Below, one piece after another: positions 2,027 through 64,000 of a stretch of 64,000 nucleotides of DNA (positions are counted from its first letter, which is position 1; each line of letters starts with the position of its first letter). This DNA comes from Adineta vaga (lineage: Eukaryota; Animalia; Rotifera). The DNA is taken from contig CP075492.1 of assembly GCA_021613535.1 (NCBI GenBank), positions 14,570,001 to 14,634,000 of the forward strand, read 5' to 3'. Both the position numbers and the translations under genes were made by a program. The notes beneath the pieces are model-generated. The model had not been told where the DNA came from, made no database searches, and saw only the letters and a program-made list of their open reading frames with translations.

Positions 2027-2217
2027 TTGTATATGCGCACGTTTTATTTCAAAATGCTTCTCTTTCTTCGCAACCGCCTTATACAAAAAGAAAAAAAATG
2101 CAGTAAGCAAAGCGATGGGGTAAAATGTAATTTTTCTTGTAATTGTGAAACTCAAAGAATGAGAAAAAAATGAGGAAGAAATATTTTATGTAAATATGGC
2201 GGCGAACCACAATATCT

Positions 2218-35193: not shown

Positions 35194-36049
35194 ATCTAGA
35201 AAATGTTTGAATATATTCATTCATCATCAAACTTTACAGATTGATTGTCATAAATTATGAATATAATATTTGTTTGATATTGTAAACGAAATGCACGTGT
35301 GTAGCTACTGTATACGTTGAAGGATGAAACTATGTATATATAAAACGCAAAAAATACAATTGCATCGATATGTAAAATTGTTCAGGCATATCATAGCGAG
35401 ATTTTTTCTTTATACTATTGAAAGTAGATATAGAACAGATACAAAAAGAAGTGACTCGTTTTCAGATTTTATTTTAAATGTTATTGTGTTTCTAATTATC
35501 ATTCCGAAAAAGTTTGTCTATAATTCTTCGTGAGCAATTCTCAACAGCCAATCGTTTACAATCAAATCAATCATCTGGTAAAAAAATCAACATATTTATG
35601 GTCTATATAATACTGAATTTGATTATGGACATTTCATAATTATTGATGCATTTAGCTGATCTAAAAATGATTCTTCGAAGAACATATGTGTTTATATATG
35701 GAAACAAATATACGATAGAAAGCAAAAATGAGAGTCTTCAATTATATCAAGTGAACAAATCTAAAACTGAGAAATGACGGTGACATCATGTGACGAAATG
35801 AATTTATTTTTGAATACTAGCATTGTTTTTCATTCACAAAAATTGTGTTCTGTTTTATAACCCAATGAAATGGTGTGAGTATGCATACAAGGTTTATCTT
35901 CATTTGCACTCATCCTGGTTATTCTCATTGGATCGATGATAATCAAGGTGGAAACAATTTTTCAACTTCTTTTCGAAATATAGTTCCAGTTAATGCATAT
36001 AAATAAAAGCTAGTTGAATGAGCAAAATATATCATGATACCAGATTTTT

Positions 36050-40899: not shown

Positions 40900-43800
40900 T
40901 TATTCATTGCTATTGACAGGAACAATGACACTTCGACGATACTTCAACCATCGACGAACTTTCCAAAAAAGATACAAACCATACCAAACAAAAAATCTTA
41001 GTCCTTCAATTAATCCACCATATAATCCAAGAAAAGTAGTTAATGTATACAAAATATTATTTCTTTCGACATATGTATATCGACATGTGAATGGTGCACA
41101 TGTCGAATAATAACTCGAATAATTACTTGTATTTTGCCATGATTCAATAAACAATTTATCAATCAATATATCAATTGTTGTTGAAGAGATTGGTGTGAAA
41201 CGACTTTTAATCGAAATGTTAAGAGGTGCAAAAACATAGGTACTATTGACAAAATTACCTAAACGTTTCAAGCAAGTTGAATTATAGAAACATTCAAGTG
41301 TGGATAATCGAAGACCATAACCAGGTAAGCAACCAATAACAAGACCTACAAGAATAATCTGAATTCTAAATAAATCTTTATTCAAGTTGATATTTTACCA
41401 GCAAATCTTGCTTGCTTTTTTTCTTGCCTTAATTCAGATCTTAAACATGTCGATAAAGTGTTACATGAACATGTTCGACCATTTTGTTTTACAGATACTG
41501 GTATTGTTGACAAAATATAGTTATTTTGAGCAGTTACTGTTCCAAGTTTCCAATTTATAGCGAATATATTCTGTAATTGATTAGCATGGAGCATATCTAT
41601 TATATATCGATGTGTTCGTCGAAAATGACTTGGTGTTTCCATGATAAAACTATTAATAATTGAATCAACTTGATGTTGAAATGATTCTTTTGACAATGGT
41701 TCGAATGTAATCAATTCTCGAGTTGACAAGATTTCTATCTTTTGTTCAATAATATTTTTTGCAAGAGAACATAATCTTGACAGAAGACGAAATTCTGTAC
41801 TTAAGATTTTACCATCGAGATACGTAAAATAGGCATTCTTCTCATTAGAACCCCAGAGTGTTCTGAAGAAATCAGACGAAATAAAATAACTTGAACATAT
41901 TTGATGATATTCACTTGGTTCAATTGTCAGAAATTTTGAAAATGATATTGCAACTTGTGTACATGGACATGAAAGTGTGGATGGATATTTGTTTTGAAGA
42001 AATTCAAATATTGATTCCGATGGAGTTGATATTCCGACCGAATATGTCGATAAATGGAACGCAGTATATGTAAAAATCGTAATAAATACTATAATAAAGA
42101 GGATAACAAGATAACGAGTGGCTACACGTTGACGTTGAATCAATGAAATATTATCAGATGTTATTGTTGATGGAGTTGATGAGTGATTGTGATGTCTGTT
42201 CTTATACAAGTTCAATGTTTGAGCATAAGTAAGAAGATTCAAGTATTTCTGACGAATGCCTAAAAACAATAACATCAATTTGAATCTTTCAGATATCTTA
42301 TATGAATTCTTATACTTATATTGAATATCACTTCTCTTCGAATGTCATATGAACGTTTCGAACAATGATGATATATTCCTCCAATTAGTTTGATAATGAT
42401 AGGAATCAATATCTGAAGTGCAGCGGAAAGACCACCGATGATACCAAATATTGTTGCAACAATATAAGCACGATTGAAACGTTCTTCATAACTGTAACTG
42501 CATTCATATGGTGCACATTGATAATAATATGAACTAAAATTAGTTGTATTGATCCAATGTTCAATAAACAATTGTGAAACGATTTTTTCCAACTTCATAT
42601 TTGGTGGAAAACGACTATAAATGGTTGAATTGAGAGGAGTAATAGACAATACATGTGAATCGATGGTTATGTTGATAAATCCAAATGAACGCCATTGTAG
42701 AAGCATCAGAATACATGATGCATTGTAAAAGCATTCAAGCGTTGATAAAAGAAGAGTATCAACAGGTAAACAACTTAAAACTAAACCAGGAATTGTTTGA
42801 TTGGGTTCCGCTGTATTTGACAAGCATTTATTTGCATTGCAGTAGAAACCTTGAGAACGTTGACAAGAACTACTGGCACCACATGAACAGTTATTATCAT
42901 AGTTATCGTTGGATCGAAAACGATGAACTAAAATATTTTTATTCAATCTGTTTAGTATCTCAGCATTTGTACTACTAGAAACCATGAATTGATTCAATTG
43001 AATTAAAGAACGAACAAGTTGAAACATCATAAGAAATGAATCAATAGTCTTAAATAAAACAAAAAGATCATTTAATACATCGATATTTTTTAATATAATT
43101 CTATACCTGTTGTTGAAATTGTCGAATAATTATGGATGTTTTAATATTGAATGTATTTCTCGACATGACACGTGCACTAATAAATTGCATTTCACTAAAT
43201 GCTCTTAATTCATTTCTCACTGTTTGATTCGACATTTGACATAATGTCTGAAGTATTCGAAATAATTTTAAACCTATCAAACGAAAATCCAAGGGGGAAA
43301 CAGGATTCTTGAACTTAGTAAAATACAGTAACCAAGTATGATCGTTGATAAAATCACTTGAACAAACTTGATGGTATTTAGACTCAATATGAATAATCGA
43401 AGAATAGGATATCGAGATTCGAGTACATGGACATATTAATGTCGATGGATATTGTACATATAATTGTTCATAGTTATCTAAAGATGGTCTTTTTATAGTA
43501 ATACTTCGAATTTGAATTGATATTGTTGCATAAAAAACTAAAACAATGATTCCAATCATATACGATATAATATAAAGTCGTGTTGAATATAATCCATCGG
43601 TTTCGTTAGATAAGAATGGAAAGAGATTCAATGTCATTAATTCCATCTTACTTCGATGTATAAACGATAAAAGACGATCTTTTATATCTATTTTCCGAAA
43701 CAAAAGAATCAAATGGAAAACAAAGAAAACAACTTACTTTGTTGTGACGATGTTTTAGTTTCATTACTTTTTATGTTTGAATGAGACATATATCTTTGAA

Positions 43801-45067
43801 GTCGCCGAAAGAGTATCACTATTAATGGCACACCAAGAAATAAAACCAATTTCAAACCACCAAAAAGGCTCATTAATGTTACAATGACATGAAGAAAATT
43901 AAATCGTCGATAATATGAATATGTACATGAATGAGGTGAACAATTTTGAAAATAACCAGTAAAATTTCTCTGTTCATTCCATGATTCAATAAATAATTCA
44001 TCTAACAGATTTTTTACTGTTATATTTTGTGAAAAATGAGTTTTCGATAGTGATGAAACTAATGAAAAACTGGGAATAAACGTTTGAGTTTGATTGATAC
44101 ATTTTTCTTGAAAAAAACATTCAAGAGTTGATTGAAGTAATGAATTATACGGTAAACAACCCACTCTTAGACTAAGAATACTTAAAACTGGTGATCCACA
44201 ACGTGTGGTTTTCGATGAACTGTTAATCGAGTTTTGATTTACTTTATAACCTGTTGAATTCCAAAATGTAGCTGCTTCTATACAATCAATGTCTCGATCG
44301 CAATTGCAAATGATATTTGAAGAAATATATTGAGCCGCTTTGTATGCAGTAATACGTGATTGTTCAGGTTTGTATGCAACTAAATAATTTGTTTTTAAGC
44401 CAGAATAAATTCCATTGTGATGTATATTTAAGGATAAAAAATCACTTGTATGTTTCATATTCGCAATATTTGCTGTTTTTAATTGGTCGATAAGATGATC
44501 GATTTGAGCATTAAACATATCATCAGATATAACTTCAAGAGTATTTAGATGTTGAGAATAGAATTGATTCAGCGAATCAACAATCATTTGTTGAATCGTG
44601 CGACAAAATACAGCAAGTATTTGAAAATGAGCTGCTGCCATTAAACGATAATCGTTCGAATAGTAACTGCTTATATTTACATCGAATAATGATGAAAGAA
44701 ATGATTGATTGACAAATTGACTTGTACATATGGAATGATAGTGTGGATTGAATATAAGAAACTTATCGTGTCGAATCAATGTTTGTGAACATGGACATGA
44801 TAATGTATTTGAATGGTGAAGAGATAGTTGTTTAAAAACAGATTCAGATGGTGAATAAATTGTCACAGATTGTGTTTGGGTAGAAAAGGCGGTGAAGATA
44901 ATAACAGTAATGAGAGTGATGGAAAAGAGAAAGAGAAATATTCGTGTTGACAATAATTGATCAATGAATGACAATTCTTCCTTATCGTTAAAAAGATTTA
45001 GTTTGATGAGATAATTATGCAAGCGTGTTAATCTACCCATTGGCTTGTGAAATATTGTCTTCATCAT
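40900..45067 (-). CDS. Multi-pass membrane protein of three tandem TM / Cys-rich ectodomain / TM modules; 5 exons
   Basis: Introns 43688-43737, 43049-43106, 42260-42315 and 41346-41398 keep the frame. Each module repeats TRxF/Y..TM, LSCPC, HxICSS.F, STLECFY, LFIExW, CAPxxCxY, G..GGL TM. Confidence 0.85.
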
Positions 45068-46214
45068 TTACAGAAATAAAATAAGTTAGAAGAATAAGAT
45101 AATGTATTTGTTCCTAGATTGCAATTGTGGAGAGAGAGAGAGACTTGTCTGTGAACAACAGAACGAGAAGGAATATGAATATCTTTAACAGATGTCAAGT
45201 AAATGAGCTGAAATTTCTATCGATAAAAGAGGCGTATTTAACGTTCATATCCATATAATCACGGTTAGCAAAGGCGTTTAGCAAGTTTTACTATCTGTCT
45301 GAGTAAAAACAATGTTATTCATTTACCGACAAGAAACAGTAAGATATGATTAACAAAAAGGTTTCTATAAATATATTTCTATGAATGTGAATAAAATCAG
45401 CTCATTTACTCATAGAAAAATGTTCTATTCACTTAAAATTGTTCTGCAAACAAAAAGTCGAATAAATCATAAAAAATTGTAACTGTTGATATTTATTAGA
45501 TTTCAAAATTGAAATAATGATTTCACAGCTTTCTTTCGCAAATACCAATTATGATAAAAGAAATCTATTTCGTCAATTTTTATTATACTAAAATCATAAT
45601 TGTTGCGGGAATCTTTGAATTATAATGCATGAAGATGAGGCTGAAATAAATATTTCAGAAAATTGTTCATGGAAATCTAATCAAAGATTCTCAACTATTT
45701 ACAATAATTGTAAAAAAACGTTTTTTACATCAATTGTATGATAATTAAAATAAGATTGATGAATTTACACACTTTGAAATAATTGGCGTTGAAGTGAGAC
45801 GAAGACGGATATCAATTTTCAAATGAAAATAAAAGAATCATTTCTAAACGGGCATGATGCGTGTATAATTATTTCTACAAAAGAAATAAATTTTATCCAA
45901 AACGTTGAAATGTAAGAATATCTTTAACTAATACTTCAGTTGAATGGAATTTCATTCTAATACATATTATTTTAGACCTTCTCATATAAGAAGAGAAAAA
46001 ATAATTTTGATAATTAGAAACTGACGTCTCTTAGAGAGAGAGAGAAAAATATATGAGGCGTCCCTTTGTTTACTTCATGAGTATACTCAAAAGCCTTTAT
46101 AAGGGGCATACGATTCATAGTTTTGATTGTCAGTTACCAAAGAGGAACGACAAACGTCATACTTAACTACATAACTTGATTTCACAGTCTATAGCTCTGA
46201 GAATCGCATTATCT

Positions 46215-46259
46215 TGATTGTGAAACATTTTCTCGAAAAAATAAAATAAAATCCAGATT
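46215..46259. repeat. 45-bp direct repeat, copy 2 (copy 1 at 40718-40762)
   Basis: See copy 1. Confidence 0.75.
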
Positions 46260-46669
46260 GTTTAAATTTTTGTTTTTTGAGATAGCCCTGATGAGGATAT
46301 GGTGATAGATACGATACTCTCGTCCTCACCCACATTCATACCCTTCACTTCCTTTTTGTATGTGCACAGACGACAATACGCATACGCTATATTCTATTAG
46401 ATATACGTCATTTTCGATATGAATACATTTTGAGAAGAGTATGTTTAATGTAGATGAAAGCATGTCTTACTACATTAATACATGAAGGGGACGTGAGTAA
46501 TCGTAAAATTCTACCTGAAAGCAACCAATAGACCAATGTAAATATTTTTCTTTAGTGTAGAAAAAAGAACGGCGTGCAAAGAGAGTATATATACGTGTAA
46601 CGAAATAAAAAGAACGGAAAAAACAGCACACGATAATTTCAAACTTCAATAAAAGTGTGCGCATTCTGA

Positions 46670-48743
46670 ATGGCGAAAGTGGTTTGTATGCCCGAGCGAG
46701 ATCGTCATCAGCAGAACAAGGATGAAGCAACACGTCTAATTCTACTTGGTATGACAGGTGGTGGTAAGTATCTATAACTGACTGGTTCCACTCTAGTGAT
46801 CTTTCTAGAAATTTTCATACAGAAAAGTCTAGATTCAAGGTTGAAAATAATTTTACACGTGGAAAGTAAAATATGAATTTTCTTTTAAATCCCCTCCCAG
46901 AATAGAAGCTCACTGGGGTTCTAATGTATCCGGAAAATTATATGTCTAAAGGTGGACTTATGTTGAGGTACTATTTTTTCGCTTTTCTACAACAATCTGC
47001 ATATATTTAAAAGTACTCGCAATTCTAATATCATCACTTTCATCTTTTTCTTTATTCATTTACAACTCTTTACTATTATTACATAAAAAAAGACTTAAAC
47101 ACAATTTTACAAAGATAATAAATACATTTTCAATAATTCCATCGTCAGAATCAATAGAGGCATCAGATTCATCTTCAGTTGATTCAATTGATGATGAGTG
47201 TAATGGTAATAATTGATTTTCTTCTATTAGGAACAATTTCGATATGTGTTAGAGATAAATACTGTGATGATTCTGCCGTGTAAACATTAGAATATATTTA
47301 TCATTGTTTTTTATGACAAATTAGACGGGAAGTAATTCCTTCTTATATCCTACAATGATAATAGCTGACGAAAAAAGTCTCTAGTAAAAGAAACAGAGCT
47401 TTATATCGTATGTATGACGAGACAAGACCAGTAGGAAAAAAGTAATGAAGAGACGCGAAAAGGGATATAGCAGGAACCTCAGTGCGGATGGGAAAGAGGT
47501 GTGGAAGACAGATAACGCGCGCTGAGTGACGATCTGAAGGATTACACTGACTAATGCAGATTAGGAAAGGAGGGTGTGAAGATTTTTTTATACCCGACGG
47601 GTAAATACTAACGGAGAGGGTTGGTGGGTGGTAAGAAGAGCACTGTTGTAGAGAAAAAACGTAAATTGTGTCCTCTTTGCAGCGCGTATCTCCGCTAGTA
47701 TCATCTGAACATATTATTGAAAAAACTTTCATTCTATCAACAAACTGATTTGTTCTCTTTTGTCTTATGATGCACGCATTTCTGATTAGGTGGGCTTCTA
47801 TTATATCTGGAAAATTATAATATTGATAGCGGGGTTTTATTCTGGGAGGGTGTTTAATGTAAATATTTTAAAACAGCATTTTGATAACGGAAATTTTTCT
47901 CACTAAATGTACTGCCTAACAGTAATATCTTGAGGATGAAGAAACAATAGTCTTACCTACACAGTCAGTCACATTCATCATCGAGGTCGGTAGTATTAAT
48001 ATAAAAGAATTTTATTTTTAGGGAAAAGCTCTTTAGGAAATACATTACTTGGCTATAGACAATTCCTTGCAGAAGGCTCACCAATATCTGTAACCGAATA
48101 TTGTCAAGTTGGGTATCGAAATTTTAACGGTCGGCACCTTGTTATTGTTGATACGCCTGGCTTTTTTGATAATAAGGATAAAGACAAAAGGGAGACATAT
48201 ATCAAAATTGGTCAATCACTTCAAACAACAGTTCCAGGTCCGCATGCATTTCTTATCGTGCTTCCTTTTCTGAGAATAACTGAAGAAATTAAAAAGGGAT
48301 GGGAATGGATAAGCGATATATTTGACAAAGAGGTATTGAATTATTGTATCATTGTTTTCACCGGTTTGGATAATCTTATTGCCGATGATTCGACTGTCGA
48401 TGGATATTTGAGAAAAAAAATACCAGAATTGACCGAGTTGATGGAAAAATGTGGTAATCGATACATAGCCTTCAACAATCGTGCCTCTGTAAAAGAAAAA
48501 GATAGTAAAATTCAAGAATTATTTGATCTAATTGATATGCTGAAAGAAATCAATGAAAACGAAGTATTCACAAATACGGAAATCAAAGAAATTGATAGCG
48601 TCGTTCCAGAAGAGACGAGAAAAGATGTATTAAGACCACGATCAGCTGGAGAAAACATTGTTTTATTACCTCAAGTTGAAAAAATTGTTGTGGAAGCTTA
48701 TATGCGAAAGCCGGCTATCCGAAAAGATATGCATAACTTATAG
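46670..48743 (+). CDS. AIG1/GIMAP-family GTPase; 2 exons (46670-46763, 48022-48743)
   Basis: P-loop LILLGMTGGG|KS is split by intron 46764-48021; SVT (G2), VDTPGFFD (G3), PGPHAFLIV (AIG1 conserved box), VFTGLD (G4), CGNRYIAFNN. Confidence 0.92.
46885..47857. mobile_element. Non-autonomous TIR DNA element inside the GIMAP intron
   Basis: Left end ttaaatcccctcccagaatagaa; right end reverse-complements to ttaaacaccctcccagaataaaa. No intact transposase. It accounts for a 1258-nt intron where ~55 nt is typical. Confidence 0.7.
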
Positions 48744-48866
48744 TTTGTTTTCGCTAAATGTTTATCCTTTTTCATGATTCTTATTTTGTAGAATATGTCA
48801 TTGTTTTTTTTGATCGATCTAACTATCTTGACACTTCTTTCAGATCATTAACTTCAATTTCAACAG

Positions 48867-51800
48867 ATGAATATTTTGCTATTACGTGATATAAACAATG
48901 ATCATGACGAACTGATTAAAACGTTGAAAACATTTGAAAAGCCAGTCGTGATCTTAAATGATATGCAATTGTGTATATCTTTTTTATCGAATTCTAGCCA
49001 TCAGATCAATAATCGGCAATCAATTCTTATTGTTCTTAACCGAGTGGGTCGACAGATAGTACCGGAAATACACTCATTGGTTAACTTATCATTTATCGTT
49101 ATATTTTGTACAAAAAAAGATAACAAAATTAAATGGACTGGTAAATATAATAAGGTTGAATTACTTTAGATTATCAGAATAATAGATTAATTAGTGTTAT
49201 CGATATTTTTAGATCAAAGGTATCTACATAAATTCAGAAGAACTTGTAAAATGTGTGCGACATCTAATGAAAAAGTCTAATCTCGTAAGGTGATAATTGA
49301 TTTTAAACGAAAATGAATCTTTCTTTGTTTAACTGGACAGCTTAGATCATATCCATGTCAACTAGTGTTTCTCGATGAACATCTAAATGAGATGATGCGT
49401 CAGCAACTTTATCGACTTGATTCTTCATTGATCGTATTTAAACGAATTCATCTATGTCTTGACTATATTCTATCTGCTGCACAAGAACGCTTCTTAATAT
49501 TGATCACTGTCAATGCGTTAGGTCGTCAAATAGTACCTGAAATTCATGACAATAATCAATTGAAAGCAGTTTTTATTTTTTGTAATATGAACTCTGAAAA
49601 AATCAAGTGGACCACGAAGTATAATAAAGTAAGAGTCTTCATTATTAGTGTTTTAAAATACATCAAACGACGCCCTTATAGATAAAAGTTGTAACAAATG
49701 ATATTGCTGAATTAATTCAATGTGTACGAAACGAAGGTTTTTATCACAGTACAGTACGTATTAAGTCATAATTGTTTGATAGATCACCACAAGATTCATA
49801 TTTTAGTTACCTTGGCATCTAGTTTGTCTTGACGATCGTTGTGATGAACTACTTCGAGATCGTATGCATGAACTTGATCCATGCGTTCAAACATTCAATC
49901 AATTTAGTATTTGCGAGAGATATTTGACTTCTTTTCATAAAGATACGAATGCAAAAAAATCGATTTTATTCATTACAACCAATAGAATCGGAAGGCAATT
50001 TATACCGGAAATTCACACAAATAATAAAATTCAAGCTTTTTATATATTTATTCCTTCCGATTCAGCACATGATAGAAGAACAAGATGGACGAAAAAATAT
50101 AATAAGGTAATATATTTTTCGAGTTCTTAATAGGATTTTCATATGAAACTTTATTTTATGTAGATAAAATGTGTGTGTACTGATCTTGATCAATTAGTTA
50201 CATATATAAAGCAAGATACAAATGAATATCTAGTGAATAATATTGATGGTATGTATAGTCTTCGTTGGCATTAAATAAGATGTACATTGAATATTAACCA
50301 TGATATGGATAAGAAAACTAAACAAACTTTTCGCAATCGCTCTTTTTACTTTCTATTTAGTCCATCAAAGTGTTTCTCATGTTCCAACAACTACTTCTGA
50401 AATCGGTAATGAAATTATCATGCATATCGCTTGAAACGAAAAAAATGTTAGAATATATCTCTTTCAGTTATACAAATTTTCTTTTTATTAGTGTATCTAG
50501 TAATATTTATGTATAATTATTCTCTTTTCAGGAGCCATTCACTCAAATGAATGGACGAACAACGACTGTATCCAATTTTATCACCCTGTAAACATTGATG
50601 TGTTGGAAAACGCAGATTATGACAAATCGACGATCATATTATGCAAAACATCGAGTGCTTTTCTGAAATTTTCTGATATCCCGGACTGTATGAATTATCT
50701 TGATGTAATACACGATCAGAAATTTACATTAGTTGCATCTGAAGCTATTGTAGAAAAAATTATACCATCTGTTCATGAACGTCAGGAACTTGATTCAATC
50801 TACGTATTTCCTGGGACAGAAAAAACAGCTCGTTCAGAACGGATAAAAGGTTACAGAAAAATCCGGAGAGAATTCGATGATATTGAGTCAATTTTTACGG
50901 ATATGAAGCAAAGTTTCTATCAATCGAATGAAGATTTAGTACCTATTAGTTTCGTCTCTACTTCGGATAATTCATTGCTCGAAGTCGATTTACATCGGCT
51001 CGATCCATCATTTATGTATACACAATTATTAAAAGAGATCCTATTGAATATGGATTATGATGAAACAGCCATCGGAGATTTTTCTCGCTACTGTCGGGAA
51101 CGATTTCCTGATGATTCAACTCATCTAAGAAGAATCGAGAAATTCGAACGTGAATATTACACTCAGTCTCCAATTTACTGGTATACCGGAGATGTTGGTA
51201 TTTATTCCATTTTGAATCGCGCTCTAAGAACATTAGATGTGGAAGCAAGTATTAAAATGGGATTTTTTATTCGTGATCTCCATCGTCAAATCGAGCAGTT
51301 GTATAACGAACAACGTAATGGATACGGTATACAACCATTTACCGTTTATCGTGGTCAAGGCTTATCCATAACTGACTTCAATCAGCTATGTAAAACCAGA
51401 GGTGGTCTTATATCGTTCAACAATTTTTTATCAACCAGTAAGAATCGAGAGATTTCTCTATTTTTTGCTGAAAGTAATCAGTTCAACCCAGATCTGGTTG
51501 GTGTTAATTTTGTCTTACAAATTAATCCAACTATTTCATCAACACCATTTGCCTCCATCGAAGAGACCAGTTATTTTGAAGTGGAAAGTGAAGTTTTGTT
51601 TGCAATGCACAGTGTATTTCGGATAGTTCATATTCAATCGATGGGAGAAAGGGATAAATTATACAGTGTGGAACTTACTTTAACTTCTGAAAACGATCCA
51701 CAACTTCAAGAACTTACAGAACGTATTTCAGATAGCATTCAAGGTGGTACAGGACTTCAACGATTAGGCGCTCTCATGATTGAAATGGGACAATACAACA

Positions 51801-52549
51801 AGGCTATAGAAATCTACCAAAACTTGCTCAATGCGACGCAATCATATGAAGATGAAGCAGGAGTTTCCTCAGTATACAATCAACTAGGTGCTGTCTATAA
51901 TCGAATTGGCGATTTTGATCAAGCTTTAAATTATTACAAGAAATCATTGACAATGAAAAATAAGTTTCTATTTTCCAATGATCCTTCTTTGTCTCCTATT
52001 TACAGCAATATTGGAAGTGTTTTGAGAAACCAAAACCAGCTAGATGAAGCTTTGAAATACATGACACGAGCGCTTAATATTGAACGTGAAGCTTCTCCTC
52101 CTAACGAGCTGAGACTTGCCTCCTATCATAACAATATTGGTCTCGTATTCATGGATAAAGGTCGATACAGCGAAGCCTTATCAAACTATGAACAAGCGCT
52201 CGAAATTCAGCAGAGATGCTTACCATCTAATCATCCAGAACTAGCTACATTGTATAATAATATAGGCACCATTTACAATGAATGGAAAGAATACAGTAAA
52301 GCCTTGTCTTATTATGAACGATCTCTTGAAATAATGCAGAAATCACTACCATCTGGTCATCCCGATCTGGCTACAGCATACAACAATATCGGTTCCCTTT
52401 ATAATGAACTTTATGACTACGAAAAAGCTTTATTATTTTATGAAAGAGCTCTTAATATAATGCAACGTTCGTTACCTGCTAATCATCCATCATTGCTTGA
52501 CGTTTATCGTAATCTTGTATTGACCCATTCTTTTTTGTCCAGTTCGTAA
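48867..52549 (+). CDS. ART-TPR protein with four tandem receiver-like N-terminal domains; 8 exons
   Basis: Exons 48867-49154, 49213-49284, 49341-49628, 49682-49753, 49807-50106, 50164-50248, 50361-50405, 50532-52549 are all GT-AG and in frame. Repeats GRQ(I/F)(V/I)PEIH...WTxKYNK|IK; ART motifs VYRG, FLSTS, ESEVLF; 6 TPRs. Confidence 0.85.
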
Positions 52550-53233
52550 AACTATTGAATATACTTCAATGACTATTTCAGAATAACCGTCGTGAATACT
52601 AGCACATCGTTAAACGATCTAAGTTCTAGTTTTCAAATGATTTTCAGAAATCTTCCAACAACAGTGGTTTTTTATTATTTGTTCTATTGTTATGTTTTTA
52701 TTCTAGATATTAATGCTCTCAAGGAAAAATCTATAGACACCGATTGCCTTCGGTATCACACCAGTTCATATCTCGACTCGGCTTAATACTTTTTTTAACG
52801 GTACGGTACTTTTAAAACTTGACAATTATTTTGTTAACATTATTTTAAGACAAAAAACTAAGGCCGAGCCAAGGAGAAAATAGTTCATATAAGGATATCA
52901 AGATTTTGTTGATTTCACTTTCTCTCGAGAATTTCCAATAATACTAAAACTTCTATTGTCTTAACTCGATTGGATGCGCCTCAACAACAAGTTTTTTTTT
53001 CCGAACTAACTATGTTTTCCTTGAGTTTGTATAATTTTGCGGATTACATTATAGATGATGCTAATATCTAAGAATGAGCTGTGGTATATTCGGCATAAAT
53101 ATATTGTTAGAGTGATGTATTTATAACCATGTTCTGTGAAGTTATACACAGTTCGCAATGACCCTTCCATTGAAATGATGACATAATTAACAGCTATGCT
53201 CGTTTTAGAAAACTCGATAGACTACTATTTACT

Positions 53234-56200
53234 ATGGGGAACGTAGAATGTTTGGGTGCAAAATCAAACCAAAGAAGACAACAGAAAAATATCATAAATC
53301 AACAAATACTTGATAAATACAGTTTTATTTGGCTCGACGATGAACAAAAAAGGAATTCGGTAGTGAAATATTGCCTAAAACGATTTACTCAACAATTAAT
53401 TCGATTTCATGACAGTAACCTGTGTGAAACATTTATCAGAGAAAGATCAAATTATCATTTTGGTTTGGTTGTTTGCCATAAACTTGGAAATATTTTAGTA
53501 CCAGAAATCGATGATTTAGTACAATTAGATTTCGTCGTTATTTATAATTTCTCATCAACGCATGTGTATACATCATGGATGAAAGAATGTAAAAAAGTAT
53601 TTAACATTTTCTACATTCAATTATTCAAAACTTCTGATTGTCCTTCTACATTAAGATCATTTATGACGTATGTGTTGATGTTGATCAATTGGAATATTCT
53701 ATCAAACAATTTATTCAGTCATTGACACTGGTATGAATATATATATTTGTATTTTAAATATTTACGATAAGCAAAAAACAAAAGTTGTGAAATAGTTTCT
53801 TCAACCATAAGAGGTATATTATAGATTCTTTGTATTATTACTGCATACGTTGTAATTCCCTATTCTGATAACAATAACATGTGATTTCTAGTCTGTGAGA
53901 TTTACATAAATACTTTAGGGTGTCTTTTGTCTTTTATCTTATGATATATATATATATATATATTTAGTGTGAGCCTGAAAGCCCTGCAGACGGCAATAAA
54001 AGCACTAGAGGCATAGTTCCAGGTATCTCTAACAATCAGCGACCATCTGAAACAAAATCAACCACTAATCCAGTTCTAGATGACTCCGAGCCGATGTATT
54101 ATCTGATATGGCTCGACACCAATGCTAATAATGATAAAATAACCAAAAAAGAATTACAATCAGTCATAAGGTGTCCACTTGTGATATTCGATGACGTGGA
54201 TGAATGCGAAAAATATGTTTTTAACAATTCACACGCACGATTCATATTCATCATTTCATATGAACTTGGGTCTGTTATAGTACCAAAAATTACATCTCTT
54301 AAACAGAATGTTAGTATTTTGGTTTACTCAACAAGTAGTATCTCTAGTAATCGACCTTGGACTGATGACTATTTTACGGTATGAAGATTTACTTATCACA
54401 ATAATTCAATATATACTCATTTTATAGGACGGTCGAACAGTTATAACGGATTTGACAACATTGAAAACTATAGTTCGGTATGAATTCAATAAATATGGTT
54501 TAGAAACTGATGTAAGTCTATACACCCATAGAGCACTTCGTGCTAGAAATTAAGTTAGAAAGGAAGTTTGATTTTGATTGATTTACTTCGATACAGCAAT
54601 TTTGATTTTAGGATGAGTATAGCGGAAGAATTATTACTACTAAGAGAGAGAGAGAGATCTTTTGTAGAAACCAATTGTAAAATATTATTTATTTAACTAT
54701 TGATTTTCAGGATTGCAACAATCCAGATAATGAAATAATTATGGACGTATTTAATCGAAAAGAAATGACAACTAAGAACTTAAAAATGGAAAAAGGCAAT
54801 TTTCTTTGGTTCAGACTATTTGTTGAGGCTCTCATTAATATGGAAGGACACAAAAGAGCACATCACGATTTATTAGAAATATTGAATAAAAACTATCCTT
54901 ATTCGAATTTTGTCCAGGAATTTTCGAAAAGTTACGCTCCGGACAAAGTCATTGAATGGTTAGTACGTAAGGATTCATGTTTAATCGGTGCACTAAATAA
55001 AGCTTTGCGACAACAACAACTAAGTCACTTATTTCATTTTCGATGTCTTATCAATGATATTTATCAACAACTCAAAACAGAGCATTGTAAAGAAACTGGA
55101 AATAAAAATCAAATTATCAAGGTATATCGAAGTCATACTGTATCCGAATTTGAGCTAAAAAAGTTTCAAGAAGCAAACGCAGGTGAGCTTATAGCTATTA
55201 ATAGTTTTATGACAGCTTGGAATGATCGAACAAAAGCAATTAATTTTCTTAAACAACAACGACAGTTTGGGCTCAAGCGTATTCTCTTCGAAATTAAAAT
55301 AGATTACAGGCGAAAATCTGGTCCCTTTGCTCATATAAATGTGGAAAATCAACAACTAACACTATTTATGCTCGGATGTATATTTCGTATTCAATCTATT
55401 TTACCAGATTCTATCCTCGATCATCACATACTTAAATTAGAATTATGTGCTGATGACGATTCAGATCTGCAGACCATATTCGATTATATGACAAAAGATT
55501 TCGTTCAGCCGGTGACAGATTTAATTACATTGGGTAATTTATTGTGCAGAATGGATGAATTAGATAAAGCTCGGCAATTTTTCGAATTGATCTTAACCGA
55601 ATTAGAAGTGAACGACCCAAATCGTGCATGTTGTTTTGATGGATTGGGAAATATTGAATATGATCAGGGTAGATATAAACAAGCATTAGAGCATCATGAA
55701 CAAGCACTTCAGCTTCGTCAGAATCGCGAGTTATTTCCGTCCAATTTTTCACTTATCGCTCTAAGTCACACTCACATTGCTAATGATTATAAAGGTCTAG
55801 GAAAGTATGATCTAGCATTATCAAATGTCGAAGCAGCGCGAAATCTTTTAAAGCAACGAAACTTGCCAGAAGATCGAATCAAAGAAGCCGCTTGTCACAT
55901 TATCATAGGATCTATTCTATTCGAACAAGAGAAATGCATTGAAGCATGTGATGAATTTCAAGAAGCATTGAAAATTTATCAACAACAAAAGATACCAAAA
56001 GATCATATTGATTTAGCGTTAATATATCAAAGCATGGCTCTTTGTCATCTTAATACAGAAACTAGGATTCATAACGCGAACTTAGCACTTCATTTCTGTA
56101 TTGAAGCGTTCCTAATTCGAGTGAATGCATTACCGAACAATCATCCCAGTATGGCTATTACCTATCGAGCAATGGGTTTAGCATACGAACAGTTGGACGA

Positions 56201-56315
56201 ATATCAGCTTGCATTAGAATATTTTCAAAAAAACCTTTCAGTTCATCGAGCATTAAACAAAAGTTCGAGCAAATTGGAAAATGCAGAAGCAGATATAAAA
56301 CGAATACAAAAGTAA
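53234..56315 (+). CDS. Two receiver-like domains + degenerate (pseudo-)ART + TPR; 5 exons
   Basis: Exons 53234-53596, 53656-53730, 53968-54378, 54428-54511, 54711-56315 in frame. FIWLDD and LIWLD domains. ART positions read VYRS, FMTAW and NQQLTLF (no STS, no ExE). N-terminus MGNVEC. Confidence 0.8.
53945..53963. repeat. (TA)n microsatellite in intron
   Basis: tatatatatatatatatat immediately before the acceptor at 53967. Confidence 0.75.
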
Positions 56316-56439
56316 ATATCGTTTACAAAACAGATTTTCAAGTAATTTTAATTTCAATTTAATTAGAAATCTTATCAATAGATCATCTCGGTCCGTTCGT
56401 CAATTTAGATCAGTAAGAATATATTGTGATCGAAATAAT

Positions 56440-57513
56440 ATGGTTTCGAAGGGTGATACTTTTTAGCAAAAATCTCACAGAGATATTGTTTCTCAAACAG
56501 GATCCGAGCCGAAAACTACAACGGAATCAACAAAATTTTATTTCAAGGATATTTTAACACAGGAGTTCACTCGACGTATTATTTTGCTCGGACGCTCAGA
56601 TATAGGTAAGATTGATTTGTGCATTATACATATTGATTGATAAGAAATAAATTTTCGTACTGTATGCACATGACTCGAGCTACAAATGTTCGAAGACAAT
56701 TTCTTGAAAGCATAATATCAATCAATTGTTTTATAGAAATTTTGAGAAAACTTGCTTAAGAATAGGCCGTAGTACTCGACGAATCTTGTTTCACTGATTA
56801 TCAAGTGTTTTTCTTAGTAGAATTTTGGAAATCAATCAGATAGTTAATTTATTTCTAAACTAGGTTTGTCGTTGTTTTTTTTAGTGAAAAGTTCATTTGG
56901 AAACATATTACTTGCTCAAGAAAATCTTTTTACAACGAATAAAAGTTTGTCTGTGACAACCAGTAAACATACGTCGGGTTGTGAAGCTGGTTTTCGCGAT
57001 TTCCATGGGAAAATGTTAATGATTGTAGATACACCCAGTCTAGATGTTCAAAATGATTTCACTTATACTTTATACGGCGAAATAGCGGAATCACTTGAAT
57101 TGACTGCACCTGGTCCTCATGCTTTTCTATTCGTACTAGAATTTACTCCTGATTTACCAGTTTCTGAAGAAGATGATCAACAACTTAGCAAGGCACTCGT
57201 TCAAATATTTGGACTGGATGTTTTCAAATACATGGTATTTGTATTTACTAACTTAGAAAAACTTCAAGATGCTCAAATCTCAATTGAAGTCTATAAGAAA
57301 AACTACTGTAGTCGAACGTTTATTGAAATGATGGACAAATGTAGAAATAGGATCATACCAATCAATAGTCGAACTCCAGCTCATGCAAGAGATCCTAAAT
57401 TTGCTGAGATCATTCTTATAATCGATAGAATGCTTAAAGATAATGATGGAAAAGAATATTCATATAAATCACCTTTTCAACAGCAAACAATGGTATTCCA
57501 AGCATACGAGTAA
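56440..57513 (+). CDS. AIG1/GIMAP-family protein with degenerate G motifs; 3 exons (56440-56452, 56501-56605, 56885-57513)
   Basis: IILLGRSDI(V)KSSFGN, with the intron at the same P-loop position as the first GIMAP; SVT, VDTPSLD, PGPHAFLFV, VFTNLE, KCRNR. Confidence 0.8.
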
Positions 57514-57928
57514 AATAATTTTAATTGGATCCTATCTAATAGAGCACAAATAAACAATTTCATATTCCTATATTGTTATTTTCTTACGCTAAACAATATC
57601 TCTTGCTTAGGTTAAACATAAAGTCAGTTTTTGGCCATTTTTGTTACTCTTCTCGTTGAAAGCACTGAGTTCTATCGAATTTCTAAATCAAGTCAGTACA
57701 ATAATAAACTCTTTTTTTCTAAATGGCGATTTGATATCATGGTTAGACAAAATTGCTATATGAGAAACACGGCTGATTTGAAAATAAGAAAGAAATTTTG
57801 AGAAGAATGTAGAGTTAAGTAGAATTTGACTTTATATAAGCAAGTTCTGCATTTTGAACTACACACACTCGCAGCGAGAAATTCTGGTTAATTTTCATCG
57901 TTTTTTATGTAGGGAACAAAATTCGACA

Positions 57929-60900
57929 ATGAATCCTTCTGAAATATCATTAGAACAAAAATCGCACAGATTTGATAGTTCCAATAGGAACAACGTCAAT
58001 AACAATACTTTTAGTCAAAGTAAATCGGTAAGATACAAATGTCATTGCTTTTGGTTAATATATATTGTGCTACAGCTAGAATTCCCTTACGTTCAATGAC
58101 TCAAGCGTTTTCTCGAAGTATAGAATATACTCATACCGTTTTATTTAAATGATACATTACTATTTAATCTTCTCATACCGAAAATCGATAATACAATGAA
58201 TTACATAGCTCTTGCACTTCGAAATGTGGACATAAATGAAAATATGACTTGAAGGAAGTATTAGTATCTTACATTCAGGTTTATAGGTCCTTTTATTTAA
58301 TGACATTATCTTTACTTCTCATTGAAAGAGATCTTCGCAGAACAGTTATAATTTCACGAAATGATCAAAGGAGATAATTGATAAAGTAAAAGAGGACTTC
58401 CTTGCTTTTCGGTCATGTTTCACTACAAAATACAGCTGAAAAATACTTCCAAAGAACGTGACATGCTTCTCCTATGCAGATTACTAGCTGTATTTTGAAT
58501 GAAGGGTTGACAGGGCAGGATGAAAACGTTATGCTGTGCTCGCCTCTAACCCGCACCCTCACGTTTCGTTTCGAAGTGAAATTTAAACTACCAGCTCTAA
58601 TAAATGTATGGGTAGAAACCGTAATACGAAATCTACTGCGGATTTTTCCAAAATAAAACACACTGGTCTTTCCCATTCTTTCATAGGTGGACGTTACTGC
58701 ATTGTTTTTATCGTTCTCTTTTTGTCGACTTCTGAGATTTTTTCCTTTCTGTTCTTTCATATATCTATAGCTGTGTTCGCTTTTATACTCTTATCGCTTC
58801 TATTCATTCAATTCTCTCTCTTCTTCTTCTTCACATTGAGTAAACCGGCTTTACGTTTATCGTTCATAAATCGTTGTAGTAACTTATCGCAGAACTAAAG
58901 TTCGAGAACGACAGTTATTCATTTCCATGCACATACGCTGCTCTTGACGACAACAACCATCTCATTGAGTTTAAAATGTTTCCAAAATATAGAAAAGTAT
59001 GTCTCTATGATTCTAATAAAAATATCTGAAAGTTGACTATTGTATTTATATTTCTTCAATTTACTCTGTATTTCAGCATTATTTTTCAAAGGAAAAAGTC
59101 GATACGGAACCACCAACTTCTATTCTGCGTAATGACATAGTTGGCATCTGTTTGCAGCCATACAAGCATAATTCAGCATCTCCTCAACAGAGTGAATTAT
59201 CTCATATATCTATATGCTTTTTTCATTTTTCTTTATACAGATGTAACTACGAATATGCCAGTGCATTTGAATCTGATCTCAAAAAACGTTTCGGATATTT
59301 TTATTGCATGTATTGGTACAGATTCTTCACCAGATCTATTGGGCCTACCATACGAAATGAAATCATTTAATGACGAATTTGACTGCATCAAAAATGTATT
59401 ATCTATGACGAATAAATATATTTATTTTATTGCTTCGCATACAATAGGCAAATATATTATTCCATTAATTTATCAACATCGATGTGTAGAACACATTTAT
59501 ATCCATTGTTCAAGTGATAATCATTTAGATCTCTCATGGATTGCTCAATTTCCAAAGATAAAGTATCATTCGACTGATTATAGTACACTTCTTTCCAAAG
59601 TATATGAAGACATTCATTTGCTCTTGTTACAGTCAAATCTATGGTCCAATAAAGAACTAATCGACAGATGTTATACTCAAACTTTAGTCAAATCGTCAAC
59701 TTGGCCATCGATTTCGTTAGATTTAATAAATACAGAAAAATGTTTACTTACGAAAAGACAAATTTCTCTAGTTATTTTACATTGTGATAAACATGCATTA
59801 TTTCATATCGATAGTGAACGTTACCCAGTGCATCAATTTTATGATGGAAGCAAGTGTATAGAATACCTACATACTACAAGTCTGAAATCTGTCTTTTTAA
59901 TCATTTCTGGGAATGCCACAGATGTTATATACCATGCTGCTAAACTGACAATACTAAAAGAACTATATGCAGTTTACTTGTTTGCACCATTCGTTTATCA
60001 ACCAGAGTCGAATGATATCCTAACCAAGTACAGAGAAATTGGCCGAGTATTCGATAATCTGGAATATCTACTTACATGTATATCGAATGATATAGAATTC
60101 TATTTAGAACAACCGATTTATATACCAACAGCATTGATATTCGATTCACATGTTGATGATATGTCTCTTACTGTTACTCAAAAAAAGTTTAGTGCATTTC
60201 AATTGTTTAGAAATATGTTATCAGAGATGCCGTCATCAATAAATCGTACACAGAATTTATACGATCGATGCTTCACTTTGACGAAAGAAAAATCCGACGC
60301 TGAAAAAACTATAGAGATTTTGAAAACGGAGAAAGATCAACTTTTCGAATGGTTCATCGATGCTCCATTTTTGTCAGTTATCATGAATAGCTTTCTACAA
60401 GAACCTTTTCCTCAAAATATATTCAACATACAGCCGTTAATTACAACTATCAATCACCGTTTTGATCAGTCTGTCTCAACAACTTCATTTTTACTCGTCT
60501 ATCGAGTGCAATTGCTCAGCGAACTAGACTTACAGACATTACAGAATAATTTGAATCATTGGATATCTTTTCATGGATATATTTTGACTACTAAAGATCT
60601 CTTAACTGTTAGAACAATAGCACGTCAAGCTGTTAATCGTGGATTATCAGCTGTTATATTTCAAATTGAAATTTCTTCGCATATCCACGTTTTGGAACTG
60701 AGCAATAACCGACTGATGTTCCGATTTGGAACAATATTTCGAATTCAAAATATTACTTTAGGGCTGGATTTAGTCTGGTATGCTCAATTGATGTATGCTG
60801 ATTCTGATTTTCAACCAGTTCAAGAACAATTACAACTTGAAGTTGGTGAAAAATTAACATGGTTAACACTGGGCAATTATTTTTGCACTATGAATTGCGT

Positions 60901-61309
60901 TAATGAGGCAAAATATTACTATGATTATCTACTTAACACATTGTCTAAAGATGATAAAGCACTTGCATCAATTTATAACAATATGGGATTGGTATGTGCA
61001 TCCCTTGGTAATGATGATATTGCTGAGAAATACTTTAATGAAGCTGTTAAACGTTTAAATGGGAATCCTACAGGTACCAATCATATCTCGAAAGAACCTT
61101 TCTCTATGCCATTATTTCAGCCAGATGAAATCACGATAACTGTTGATGGTTGCATACTATATGATAAAATGGCTGAACTATATATTCATCAGCGAAATTA
61201 TAAGCAAGCTATTGAATGTTATCGAAAAGCACTAGAAGCAGCAACTGATCGTATGTTGTGTGTATACTATGAACAAAAGATTAAAAGTATTTTACCATTG
61301 TCGCAATAA
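57929..61309 (+). CDS. Two receiver-like domains + degenerate ART + TPR; main exon 59241-61309, tentative 5' exons 57929-58019 and 58076-58117
   Basis: Two alpha/beta repeats (IYFIAS...IYIHC; VFLIISG...VYLF). ART positions read VYRV, YILTTK and NNRLMFRFGTIFRI (no ExE). TPRs such as IYNNMG. The 5' exons are inferred from splice phase only. Confidence 0.75.
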
Positions 61310-61554
61310 GTTATCTTTTATCGAATCTTCTTAATCCCGTTTTTCATTTAGTTGATTACGTTCTTTATCATTTTTCTGACACTATTTTCTTTTTTTTATA
61401 TGCATGAATACTATAATCGAAGAAAAGAACTCTCCTCGGCGGATCCTTTGACCTCGCTAAAACTTTATTTTGCTTTTTTTAGATATTGAAAAGAATGCTA
61501 CGTTCTAAGAGTCAAGTAAATAAAATAGCAACTCAATATGCAACTGCTGCTTGG

Positions 61555-63427
61555 ATGAGAAATAATTTCGATCAGTAAGTCTCAATCAATCAATTATCTT
61601 CTCAAAAAATGACTTTCTCTTCGGAATAGTTCGAATAGAGAATCATCTATATCATGTTTAGATCGAAATCTTTTTGGTATTTGGTATTGTGAAGGTCATT
61701 TTGACGAAATTATGCGCAGTGAGATGAAAAAGCGTCTGAATATATTGTTTGATTATACTCGTATATTCACTGATTTACTTGATTTTATTCAATATATTAC
61801 GCAACCGTTGACAGCAAAGGAAATATTTTTTATTCTTACTGGTCAAAATGCTCAATACTTATTCTCTACAGCTACAAAACGTTTACAGTATCCACGAGTG
61901 TATCGATTCCAACCAGCTCCATCATCTAATAATGATCCTGATATATTTACGGATATTAATGAATTATTTAGAAAATTATCTGAAGATATCAATGCTTATA
62001 TAGCAAGCAATGAATACTTCTCTACTTCTGACTCTTCATCAACAGATTGTCGTGAATCAATCGTTCCACCTCCATGGACTGTATGCAATTCGAAAGCACT
62101 AGAGAAATCATTTCAGTCTTGGAACAAAGAAACTCCTGAATTTTTTCTTTTCCAAGCACTAACTAAGATCCTTACACGAATGAAATGTGATCCAGTTCGA
62201 TCTCTTGAGGAAATGTTTGCAGAATGTCGTATACATTATATGGGTGATCCAAAAGTAGTAGGAAAAATTGATGCAATTCAGAACAACTATCATTCTGATC
62301 ATGTTATTCGATATTATACGGAAGATTCGTTTTTCTTTCGATCGATTGGACGAGCATTTCGATCAGAAGATTTCGAGCGTATTTTTATTTTTCGTCGTTC
62401 TATCATTGATCTTCATAGTGAACTTGATAAGCTGATTAGACAGCAAGGAAGTGTACATAAAACACTCCGATTATATCGAGGAAAGAAGATATCTACTACT
62501 GTTCTACAACAACTACAAGATAGTATTGGTGCTTTATTATCTATGAATGGATTTTTATCGACGACACACAACCAAGAAATGGCTATTAAATTCTTTGCAG
62601 GTGCTGATCAGAATCGATCTGGTTATGAAAGTGTACTTTTCCAATTTGAGATTGATCAGGCAAATATTACTAGAACTTATGCTGATATATCTACGATGAG
62701 TAACATGCCAGAAGAAGAAGAAGTCTTATTCAGTATTGGATCAATATGGCGAATTGTAACGATTGAAAAGGCAGTGGATTCCTCTTTCTGGACTATCGAT
62801 TTAATCGCTTGTAGTGATGCAGATTTAAGAATCATTCAGTTTTTTGAGGAACTTCCAGATAATTCAACGCTATTGATGCTTGGTGATGTTTTACGTGAAT
62901 TAGGACAACATACAAAAGCCGAAAAATTTTACAATCAAATGCTAAGCGAACAAACAATCAGCGATGAAATACGATTTATTCTTTATTATAATATTGCGAT
63001 TATAAATATGGAACAAGAAAAATCTGATGTAGCATTAGAAAATTTCCATAAAGCAGAAAAATTGCTTTCTTCAAAACCAGTCAATCCAACTTTGTGGAAT
63101 CCTCGACCATTGTATTGTCCCAGTGCAACACCATCTTCAATTCATGTTTTAAATAATATGGGACTTTTGTATCAGAAGAAAGGTGAACTAGACAATGCTC
63201 TAATATATTATACTCAAGCGTTAGAAGATAAACAAAGTGATCGAATAGATCAAGCGACAGTGAACGACAATATTGGATTAATATATTATAGAAAAGGAGA
63301 ATATAAAAACGCTTTGGAATTTCTTTCAAATGCAGTTAAACTTGCTCAAGATCATGCATCGTTAGCTCAATTCAAAAATCATTATGATGATGTTCATAAT
63401 ATTTTATTTGTTCAAAAGACTTCTTAG
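61555..63427 (+). CDS. Receiver-like + ART + TPR protein; probable 2 exons (61555-61574, 61630-63427)
   Basis: LYRG, FLSTT and EEEVLF intact; C-terminal TPRs; 55-nt intron 61575-61629 in frame. Confidence 0.85.
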
Positions 63428-63829
63428 ATCAAAGATTAGAACGATTCATTTATAGATGTTGACAGTCAGAAAAAGAAACTTCTTCAGTGACATATTACTC
63501 TTCTCTAATCAAAATGAAATCTTTTTCTGCAATGAAATTTCAGCGAATATTCAAAAAATGAATTGCGTTAAAATAATCTGCATAAGTTATTGCTATGAAA
63601 GTTTACATTTATTTTCTTCTTCAGAATAAAGAAGAAAATTGAGAGCAACTATCATGTAATCATTCGATGTAAAGATATCACCTTTTCACTGCGACCGTAT
63701 AAGAACATGAGAAAGTGCTGAGGCCACCTATATTCTGTTTACCGCTTGGGGGCGGACGTAGTATATATATATACTATCAGTAGTATTTTTCACGATTTTC
63801 TGTTGATATATATTTTTAATCAATGAAAA

Positions 63830-63899
63830 GGGTGTGGGTGGGCATGGGCGTGGCTAAAAAAGAGGCATCCAAATCTACACACACCCACACCCACGCCCA
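63830..63899. repeat. Inverted GGGTGT/ACACCC telomere-like repeat pair
   Basis: gggtgtgggtgggcatgggcgtggc, a 23-nt spacer, then cacacacccacacccacgccca. Confidence 0.7.
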
Positions 63900-63900
63900 A

Positions 63901-64000
63901 AAAACATTCAAGAGTTGATTAAAGTAATGAATTATACGGTAAACAACCTACTCTTAGACTACGAATACTTAAAACTGGTGATCCGCAACGTGTTGTTTTC
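63901..64000 (-). pseudogene. Truncated duplicate of exon 1 of the 40900-45067 membrane gene (continues beyond the window)
   Basis: 95/100 identical to 44114-44213. Homology ends abruptly at the telomere-like element. Confidence 0.8.

Follow-up and report, generated by a model that had tools for sequence, protein, structure and literature searches.

Within a 64,000-nt stretch of the genome of the bdelloid rotifer Adineta vaga (assembly GCA_021613535.1, contig CP075492.1, positions 14,570,001 to 14,634,000 of the forward strand; "the window" below, numbered from its first letter), we describe a locus of four + strand genes, here called A, B, CDE and F. Gene A encodes a GIMAP-type (AIG1) GTPase of 271 aa; B (1,055 aa) and F (625 aa) encode proteins with receiver-like repeats, an ADP-ribosyltransferase (ART) domain and TPRs; and CDE encodes a protein of 1,880 aa that unites two ART-TPR modules (C and E) and a GIMAP domain (D), all three with degenerate catalytic motifs. 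This pseudoenzyme fusion is real, conserved and apparently undescribed, and it lies in a likely functional cluster; literature searches, most matches of which were judged from listings, found no paper that describes the bdelloid receiver-ART-TPR architecture, the fusion or the linkage.

The original prediction, made from the letters of the window (AT-rich animal DNA with short GT-AG introns), had counted six consecutive + strand genes. Six + strand coding blocks are indeed present in the predicted order, with Pfam AIG1 matches at 48003-48740 (E 7.8e-46) and 56851-57510 (E 1.1e-27) plus four ART-TPR blocks, but blocks 3-5 are spliced into a single gene. The RNA evidence consists of contigs from runs X1-X4, all of one study, and from runs X5-X7, of two other studies; those of X1-X4 are RNA-derived, since they carry spliced joints, and all four genes are represented in the RNA contigs of 4/4 runs examined. 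Blocks 3-5 constitute one gene because RNA joints connect them and the spliced frame is open, with 1,880 codons and no internal stop. GT..AG joints at 56311>56367, 56412>56467, 56602>56882 and 57509>57913 (4/4 runs) unite the blocks, joints at 58026>59076 (3/4 runs) and 59191>59241 (4/4) lead into the second ART-TPR module, and a single 2,276-nt contig of run X3, starting at 55101, spans all the joints uniting blocks 3-5. The stop codons at 56313 and 57511, at which genes had been predicted to end, lie inside intron donor sites. Eight of the ten introns of CDE are listed as joints, one as a loose end and one is predicted; upstream of the start codon, the joint 52799>53208 occurs in 4/4 runs with 92-95 nt on its short side. 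The protein begins with MGNxxC, which we take to be a myristoylation/palmitoylation motif and a predicted lipid anchor, and continues with two receiver-like repeats, a dead ART, TPRs, a dead GIMAP, a linker, two further receiver-like repeats, a second dead ART and TPRs. The linker peptide matches a Rotaria protein (P0283) upstream of that protein's own E module. Public gene models split the gene: UJR11389.1 corresponds to CDE residues 1-1115 (C and D, 1,115 aa), and E is annotated as a separate 684-aa protein.

In alignments, the ART domains of C and E keep the first Arg only, the S-T-S motif being replaced and E-x-E absent; the same holds for S-T-S and the catalytic E-x-E in 2/2 rows for C (CDE and Rotaria P0123), and both motifs are absent in 12/12 aligned orthologue rows for E. 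A model of E has an ART fold (best Z 10.8, rmsd 4.1, 156 aligned; mean pLDDT 65.5), and C is assigned to this fold by sequence alignment only. D matches AIG1 with 97.2 bits and keeps the Lys-Ser of its P-loop, but carries Val at the P-loop Gly and DTPS for DTPG and is without the conserved-box Arg and the G4 Asp; across the D-type rows, the P-loop Val is found in 4/4 covering rows, the G3 Gly is kept in 1/6, and the conserved-box Arg and G4 Asp in 0/6 each. Between Adineta and Rotaria, identity is 63% for the C ART, 56% for D and 53% for E, as against 66% for the intact gene A. We therefore regard the dead domains as selectively kept pseudoenzymes, likely catalytically inactive, because they are conserved at nearly the level of the intact GIMAP and their losses are shared rather than random. 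Pseudogene decay is ruled out by this conservation, and the pseudoenzyme idea of the original prediction holds.

A full HMMER search with D retrieved Rotaria P0123, a fusion of dead ART-TPR and dead GIMAP with the same substitutions (55% identity over 782 columns), plus four metagenome fragments; the ART-TPR-GIMAP part of the fusion is thus present in two genera, Adineta and Rotaria. E has 12 orthologues at 45-53% identity. A GIMAP tree was built from 26 rows, namely 6 D-type, 5 A-like and 15 outgroup sequences hand-picked from 120 listed relatives (P0132, a shorter copy of P0268, was omitted). In it the D-types form one clade with support 100/100 and a long stem branch (1.3), and this clade groups with the bdelloid A-like GIMAPs with support 93/98, which lies below the starred mark. 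D likely arose from an A-like gene, since both share a phase-1 intron in the P-loop.

Gene A itself is an intact GIMAP. Its AIG1 domain reaches 156.5 bits (Pfam cut-off 27), its intron splits the P-loop in phase 1, and it keeps G1 GxxxxGKS, G3 DTPG and the conserved-box Arg, which in GIMAPs is a trans-acting finger; its G4 reads TGLD, versus a TRKD-like motif in most outgroups of the alignment. It is 66% identical to its Rotaria orthologue P0243, which matches GIMAP4 at E 8e-38, and is likely an active GTPase, as predicted from these motifs. Among 120 listed of the 142 longer relatives that matched GIMAP A, none carries ART or TPR families; nine of the 120, mostly from fish, carry a Macro domain, which binds ADP-ribose (P0095, P0105, P0107, P0109, P0111, P0114 and P0116-P0118, one of them named PARP14-like). 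These AIG1-Macro fusions give a separate hint that GIMAPs meet ADP-ribose signalling. Inside the intron of gene A (46885-47857), about 970 bp are bracketed by inverted repeat arms (30 nt, 80% complementary). The core is richer in G+C and has a 174-aa reverse frame to which Pfam gives no match; the element may be a non-autonomous DNA transposon.

B and F retain R-S-E motifs in the alignment (YRG/STS/ESE and YRG/STT/EEE, respectively) and are likely active R-S-E ADP-ribosyltransferases on this sequence evidence, so that the motif states first proposed for the locus hold throughout: first GIMAP, B and F intact, both middle ARTs and the second GIMAP degenerate. B scores 22.6 bits against Pfam ART (cut-off 22.3) and also matches TPR, while the ART of F scores below the cut-off; the motifs of B align to those of Vis in a weak match (E 0.084). 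Both proteins fall into Atlas ART clusters at 0.95, and the nearest Atlas clusters are rotifer proteins. Four of the seven introns of B are seen as RNA joints, one as a loose end and two are predicted. The first exon of F (61495-61574) is predicted, behind a strong acceptor at 61482 (99.8th percentile); contigs of F begin at 61630 in 3/4 runs and its first joint is not among the listed joints. A protein fusion of B to CDE was considered and rejected: a phase-matching donor at the end of B and the acceptor at 53208 exist, but the joint is not listed and an X7 contig passes the B stop to 52693. The four ART domains had been seen as intact copies paired with degenerate ones. They are instead old paralogues and not fresh tandem copies, because they are mutually only 20-28% identical, whereas B shares 51% identity with a paralogue at 3597-5567.

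Receiver-like repeats stand at the N-termini of the modules, four in B (as originally counted), four in CDE and one in F. A model of a paralogous repeat at 3678-4061 adopts a CheY-like receiver fold (Z 13.1, rmsd 2.5, 117 aligned), 48 of 50 rows being receivers, and the first repeat of the E module matches receiver folds at Z 8.3. A profile search with the repeats against PDB sequences gave designed proteins only, and Foldseek gave no match with E < 0.001. The repeats are pseudo-receivers, since the phospho-acceptor Asp at the end of strand 3 is found in 0/11 aligned repeats. The features of the locus are collected in Table 1.

Table 1. Features of the GIMAP/ART-TPR locus, in positions of the 64,000-nt window
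Feature	Position	Strand	Remarks
Gene A, GIMAP/AIG1 GTPase, 271 aa	46670..48743	+	exons 46670-46763 and 48022-48743; exon joint in 4/4 runs
A/B junction, candidate trans-splice site	48829..48844	+	poly(A) site of A on the spacer's strongest acceptor AG (48842-48843), 23 nt before the ATG of B
Gene B, 1,055 aa, 8 exons	48867..52549	+	four pseudo-receivers, intact-motif ART, TPRs; open spliced frame
Non-coding first exon of CDE	52707..52800	+	starts at AG; followed by intron 52801-53208; stops in all three frames
Gene CDE, 1,880 aa, 11 coding exons	53234..61309	+	RNA contigs end at 61376
First pseudo-ART (C) of CDE	54792..55517	+	S-T-S replaced, E-x-E absent
Pseudo-GIMAP (D) of CDE	56570..57509	+	exons 56467-56605 and 56885-57509; P-loop intron in phase 1, as in gene A
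Linker exons, pseudo-GIMAP to second ART-TPR module	57913-58027, 59077-59191	+	two exons, each open in one frame only
Second pseudo-ART (E) of CDE	60182..60856	+	model matches R-S-E ART folds
Gene F, 625 aa	61495..63427	+	one pseudo-receiver, intact-motif ART, TPRs; open frame

The spacing of the genes suggests a possible operon. At the A/B junction, a run X7 contig carries 16 A behind 48844, an X5 contig ends there also, and the contigs of A end at 48823-48844; a protein fusion of A to B was discarded on the same ground, the contigs of A terminating there with a poly(A) tail. The acceptor at this site scores 9.0 (98.6th percentile of AGs), and the spacer has no donor above 0.4 and no AATAAA. 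From stop to acceptor, the three spacers of the locus measure 123, 157 and 173 nt, with best donor scores of 0.4, 1.5 and -0.3, respectively, on a splice-site matrix derived from 20 introns of the locus (true-donor minimum 1.4, median 7.9). The AG directly before the ATG of B (48866) scores poorly, at -0.5. A looser criterion, any AG before a start, was dropped as uninformative, being passed by 66 of 143 non-coding 30-nt bins. Further along, CDE contigs begin at an AG 12 nt past the last base of the B contigs, and a very strong acceptor for F lies about 106 nt past the end of CDE RNA. In operons of Ciona, the poly(A) site of the upstream gene lies on the acceptor AG of the downstream gene, with no intercistronic DNA (available part of PMC1488885), and rotifers have a spliced leader that ends in GAG (available part of PMC3795323). 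The locus resembles the Ciona and C. elegans SL1-type operons in that the upstream poly(A) site falls on the acceptor AG and the spacer is without AATAAA, and it fits operons resolved by spliced leaders in its single strand, its short spacers and its acceptors without an upstream donor; it differs from them as a candidate for which neither a leader-bearing mRNA nor a bicistronic precursor was seen and in the CDE-F gap of about 106 nt between RNA end and acceptor. On balance we slightly favour the view that one promoter upstream of A serves both A and B and that spliced-leader trans-splicing resolves their transcript; for the remaining genes the same reading is less probable than for A and B.

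Gene order in other genomes was assessed by a metagenome scan that picked loci by similarity to the GIMAP alone. Three were obtained (L001-L003), of which L001 is too short and two are informative, and in both of these (2/2) the GIMAP gene is followed by a receiver-repeat gene. In L003, a GIMAP 67% identical to A has its stop 112 nt ahead of the orthologue of the first receiver of B (58% over 96 aa); the GIMAP of L002 is a paralogue (53%), and the MGNxC gene behind it encodes two receivers that come nearest to those of C. By eye, the gene after the GIMAP in L002 also seems to have a 5' untranslated intron (1670-1771) before its MGNxC start, as in CDE. Because the window alone holds 7 ART domains of the receiver-ART-TPR family, we give more weight to the orthologous pair in L003 than to adjacency as such. 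The link between GIMAP and ART-TPR genes first noticed in the window is thus borne out and is stronger than first supposed, with GIMAP-type and ART-TPR modules in one protein in Adineta and Rotaria and with the GIMAP-then-B order recurring in another genome; a link to ART itself in L002 and L003 is something we infer.

Since a conserved protein holds dead copies of both neighbouring enzyme kinds, we propose that CDE binds the products of A, B and F. In the resulting model, which we put forward tentatively and rate at somewhat below an even chance, CDE is a lipid-anchored pseudoenzyme scaffold or brake that would restrain A, B and F, its partners in a co-expressed module, until a cue of stress or infection sets them free. 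The four genes would share a promoter upstream of A, their transcript being cut up by spliced-leader trans-splicing, and the MGNxxC start of CDE would be myristoylated and palmitoylated. The dead GIMAP would pair with A through the G-interface and block its GTPase cycle, as nucleotide-free GIMAP6 does with GIMAP7, and the dead ART-TPR arms would hold B and F, or the substrate of B and F, by TPR and pseudo-receiver contacts. On release, B and F would transfer ADP-ribose to arginine targets, as their E-x-E motif suggests. A complex prediction of Rotaria P0243 with residues 510-733 of the dead GIMAP protein P0123, GTP and Mg, run without alignments, scored 0.01, which gives no verdict on the pairing.

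This model has partial precedents. In humans, GIMAP6 is unable to bind GTP and acts as an inhibitor of GIMAP7 by way of the G-interface (available part of PMC9111091), and GIMAP activity is governed by homo- and heterodimers (available part of PMC8201404). The human GIMAP6:GIMAP7 and GIMAP2:GIMAP7 pairs resemble the locus in that an AIG1 protein unable to work alone stands beside an active paralogue in a cluster; the rotifer dead GIMAP differs in being internal to a 1,880-aa ART-TPR fusion and in having lost residues of the P-loop, G3 and conserved box, and its pairing with A is putative. With the R-S-E ARTs (cholera-toxin-like; Pfam ART/ADPrib_exo_Tox; Vis, ExoS, C3 and vertebrate ART2.2) the rotifer proteins share the fold and, in B and F, the motifs; they differ in being intracellular-looking (no signal peptide was seen in the sequences of the receiver-ART-TPR proteins), in their pseudo-receiver and TPR domains, in forming a family of hundreds and in having two copies without motifs. 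The combination of GTPase switches with inactive enzyme copies recurs in bacterial conflict systems (available parts of PMC7159879 and PMC8195603), and the prokaryotic NTP-dependent systems of the iSTAND/VMAP ternary type (PMC7159879, same part) likewise link a GTPase switch, AIG in some, with effectors and inactive enzyme copies. The rotifer locus differs from them in having no MoxR, vWA or STAND component and in its spliceosomal introns; no relatives were found in prokaryote genomes or viral contigs by pattern scans, which detect close relatives only.

The original prediction had also drawn analogies with IRG GKS/GMS pairs and with separate, paired sensor and executor genes, and neither carries over. 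IRG GKS/GMS pairs and paired NLRs do resemble the locus in that an active paralogue and an altered one are neighbours and one of them has been proposed to regulate the other. The dead GIMAP, however, is not an IRG, retains Lys-Ser in G1 instead of the Lys-to-Met change of the GMS type and sits inside a fusion. As for the sensor/executor pairs, the three dead units form a single gene, no NB-ARC or NACHT domain was matched by Pfam in the 11 blocks scanned, and all the genes lie head-to-tail on the + strand, with none head-to-head. We consider rather unlikely the most elaborate version of our model, an operon-encoded, GTPase-gated ADP-ribosylation switch whose single transcript would supply an active GIMAP, two active ARTs and, mirroring all three, a membrane-anchored guard made of three pseudoenzymes. 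If true, an animal would have reassembled a threshold defence system of bacterial style out of receiver, ART, TPR and GIMAP parts. The locus offers a first testable wiring for the hundreds-strong bdelloid receiver-ART-TPR family and links GIMAPs to ADP-ribosylation, and the A/B junction is a concrete place for probing rotifer operons.

Several observations weigh against the proposed module. Neighbourship alone is cheap evidence, since the window holds 7 ART domains of the family in 6 genes, and neither L002 nor L003 extends to an ART domain. On the side of trans-splicing, the acceptor at 52706 reaches only the 85th percentile, and no spliced leader was found among the loose ends listed, which come from contigs only. 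All CDE joints, including the join to the second dead ART, derive from one RNA study; X5-X7 gave no joints and 0 contigs at the joints, their coverage being too low. A shorter form of CDE may be common, since the donor at 57509 is read through by a 165-nt X7 contig, of which 26 nt lie in the exon, and the public models break the gene at this same point. Besides the window's own model, the full-length fusion was not found among 530 long candidates, and that model was likewise the only longer relative of the C ART domain. Annotated proteins of Rotaria sp. Silwood2 (P0278, P0283-P0285) have a 250-aa coiled coil ahead of the E module, where CDE has its GIMAP, and two of the four proteins end in a different TPR tail.

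As to function, the locus is possibly a defence or stress module. In the supplement rows of PMC11258130 (Supplementary Data 3 and 6), two results speak against the candidate immune role of the original prediction: the arginine-ART term is enriched only among candidates for horizontal gene transfer that are down-regulated on fungal infection (6 and 19 of 431 genes in A. vaga, 8 of 366 in A. ricciae, for the ART-annotated class, in which the genes of the locus were not traced), and it is absent from the up-regulated file. That file shows GTP binding enriched in A. vaga at 7 h (30/756), with AIG1 not named, and the available main text of the paper makes no mention of ART, AIG1, GIMAP or TPR.

These data bear on a first alternative, which we hold unlikely, in which CDE is a decoy or sensor whose dead domains mimic host proteins attacked by parasite effectors, effector binding then triggering B or F. 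Inactive enzyme copies do occur as decoys or dominant-negative parts in bacterial conflict systems (available part of PMC7159879), the stem branch ahead of the dead GIMAP clade is long and TPR arrays are typical binding modules; yet conservation of the dead domains comes close to that of the intact GIMAP, whereas arms-race baits would be expected to vary fast, and in the supplement rows ART-annotated genes are not induced by the fungus (PMC11258130).

A low probability also attaches to the possibility that a real module works in ordinary signalling, be it in development, feeding, desiccation or another stress, with the receiver-ART-TPR proteins as a general and not an immune signalling kit of rotifers. 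The size of the family would suit this, the arginine-ART term GO:0003956 covering 431 genes in A. vaga and 366 in A. ricciae (the latter out of about 58,400; Table 1 of PMC11258130, in the part available), as would the presence of all four genes in RNA contigs of every X1-X4 run. Protein ADP-ribosylation terms also fall in spaceflight (available part of PMC12220480), and GIMAPs act in autophagy and lipid handling too, according to the portions of the literature available. On the other hand, defence systems described in the literature available repeatedly feature each of the four elements, GIMAPs, R-S-E ARTs, TPR expansions and enzyme copies without activity, and expansions of TPR families are described for A. 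vaga in the available part of PMC3846280.

It is distinctly unlikely, in our judgement, that only CDE and perhaps the A-B pair are functional and that the row of four genes is an old duplication accident, preserved by slow rearrangement, whose products do not interact. The density of ART domains in the window and the distance among the four of the locus, which are no closer to each other than to distant paralogues, would agree with an accident; synteny, moreover, was seen only for the GIMAP-then-receiver order on two short contigs, and the Rotaria accessions orthologous to C-D and to E are non-adjacent, among 4 listed for a protein on 6 contigs. Against it stand the donor-free spacers of 123-173 nt with the overlap of poly(A) site and acceptor, the fact that the fusion holds dead copies of exactly the two enzyme kinds that flank it, and the same type of neighbour beside the paralogous GIMAP of L002.

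Very unlikely, finally, is a reading in which splicing from the dead GIMAP into the second ART-TPR module is a minor read-through event and the main products are separate proteins of 1,115 and 684 aa. In its favour, the public models give both shorter proteins, the X7 contig runs through the donor, Rotaria P0123 stops at the corresponding position and P0269 stands by itself in the annotation. Against it, contigs of 3/4 runs cross both long introns in frame at a depth equal to the flanks, the peptide of the linker exons is conserved in Rotaria, and 4/5 D orthologues stop at one column, where the residue's codon can end in G, as with a stop in a GTAA-type donor (a point deduced from protein only).

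The remainder of the window is rich in related genes. Three further receiver-ART-TPR genes with intact-looking motifs lie at 3597-5567, 7809-12371 and 28860-31790, the first of which starts with MG. Short - strand ART-like genes of another type, without TPRs, occupy 925-3172, and one of their exons matches Pfam ART. A large gene at 13729-19380 encodes a PARG catalytic domain of microbial type (E 2.9e-20), so that this ART-rich window may also hold an eraser of ADP-ribose. No Rfam match was found in 45000-64000. Uninterrupted frames at 5832-6803 and 33337-35220 encode an APH-family phosphotransferase and an S9 peptidase, respectively, and are candidates for horizontally acquired genes. Upstream of the cluster, at 40900-45067, tandem - strand genes belong to one membrane-protein family without assigned function.

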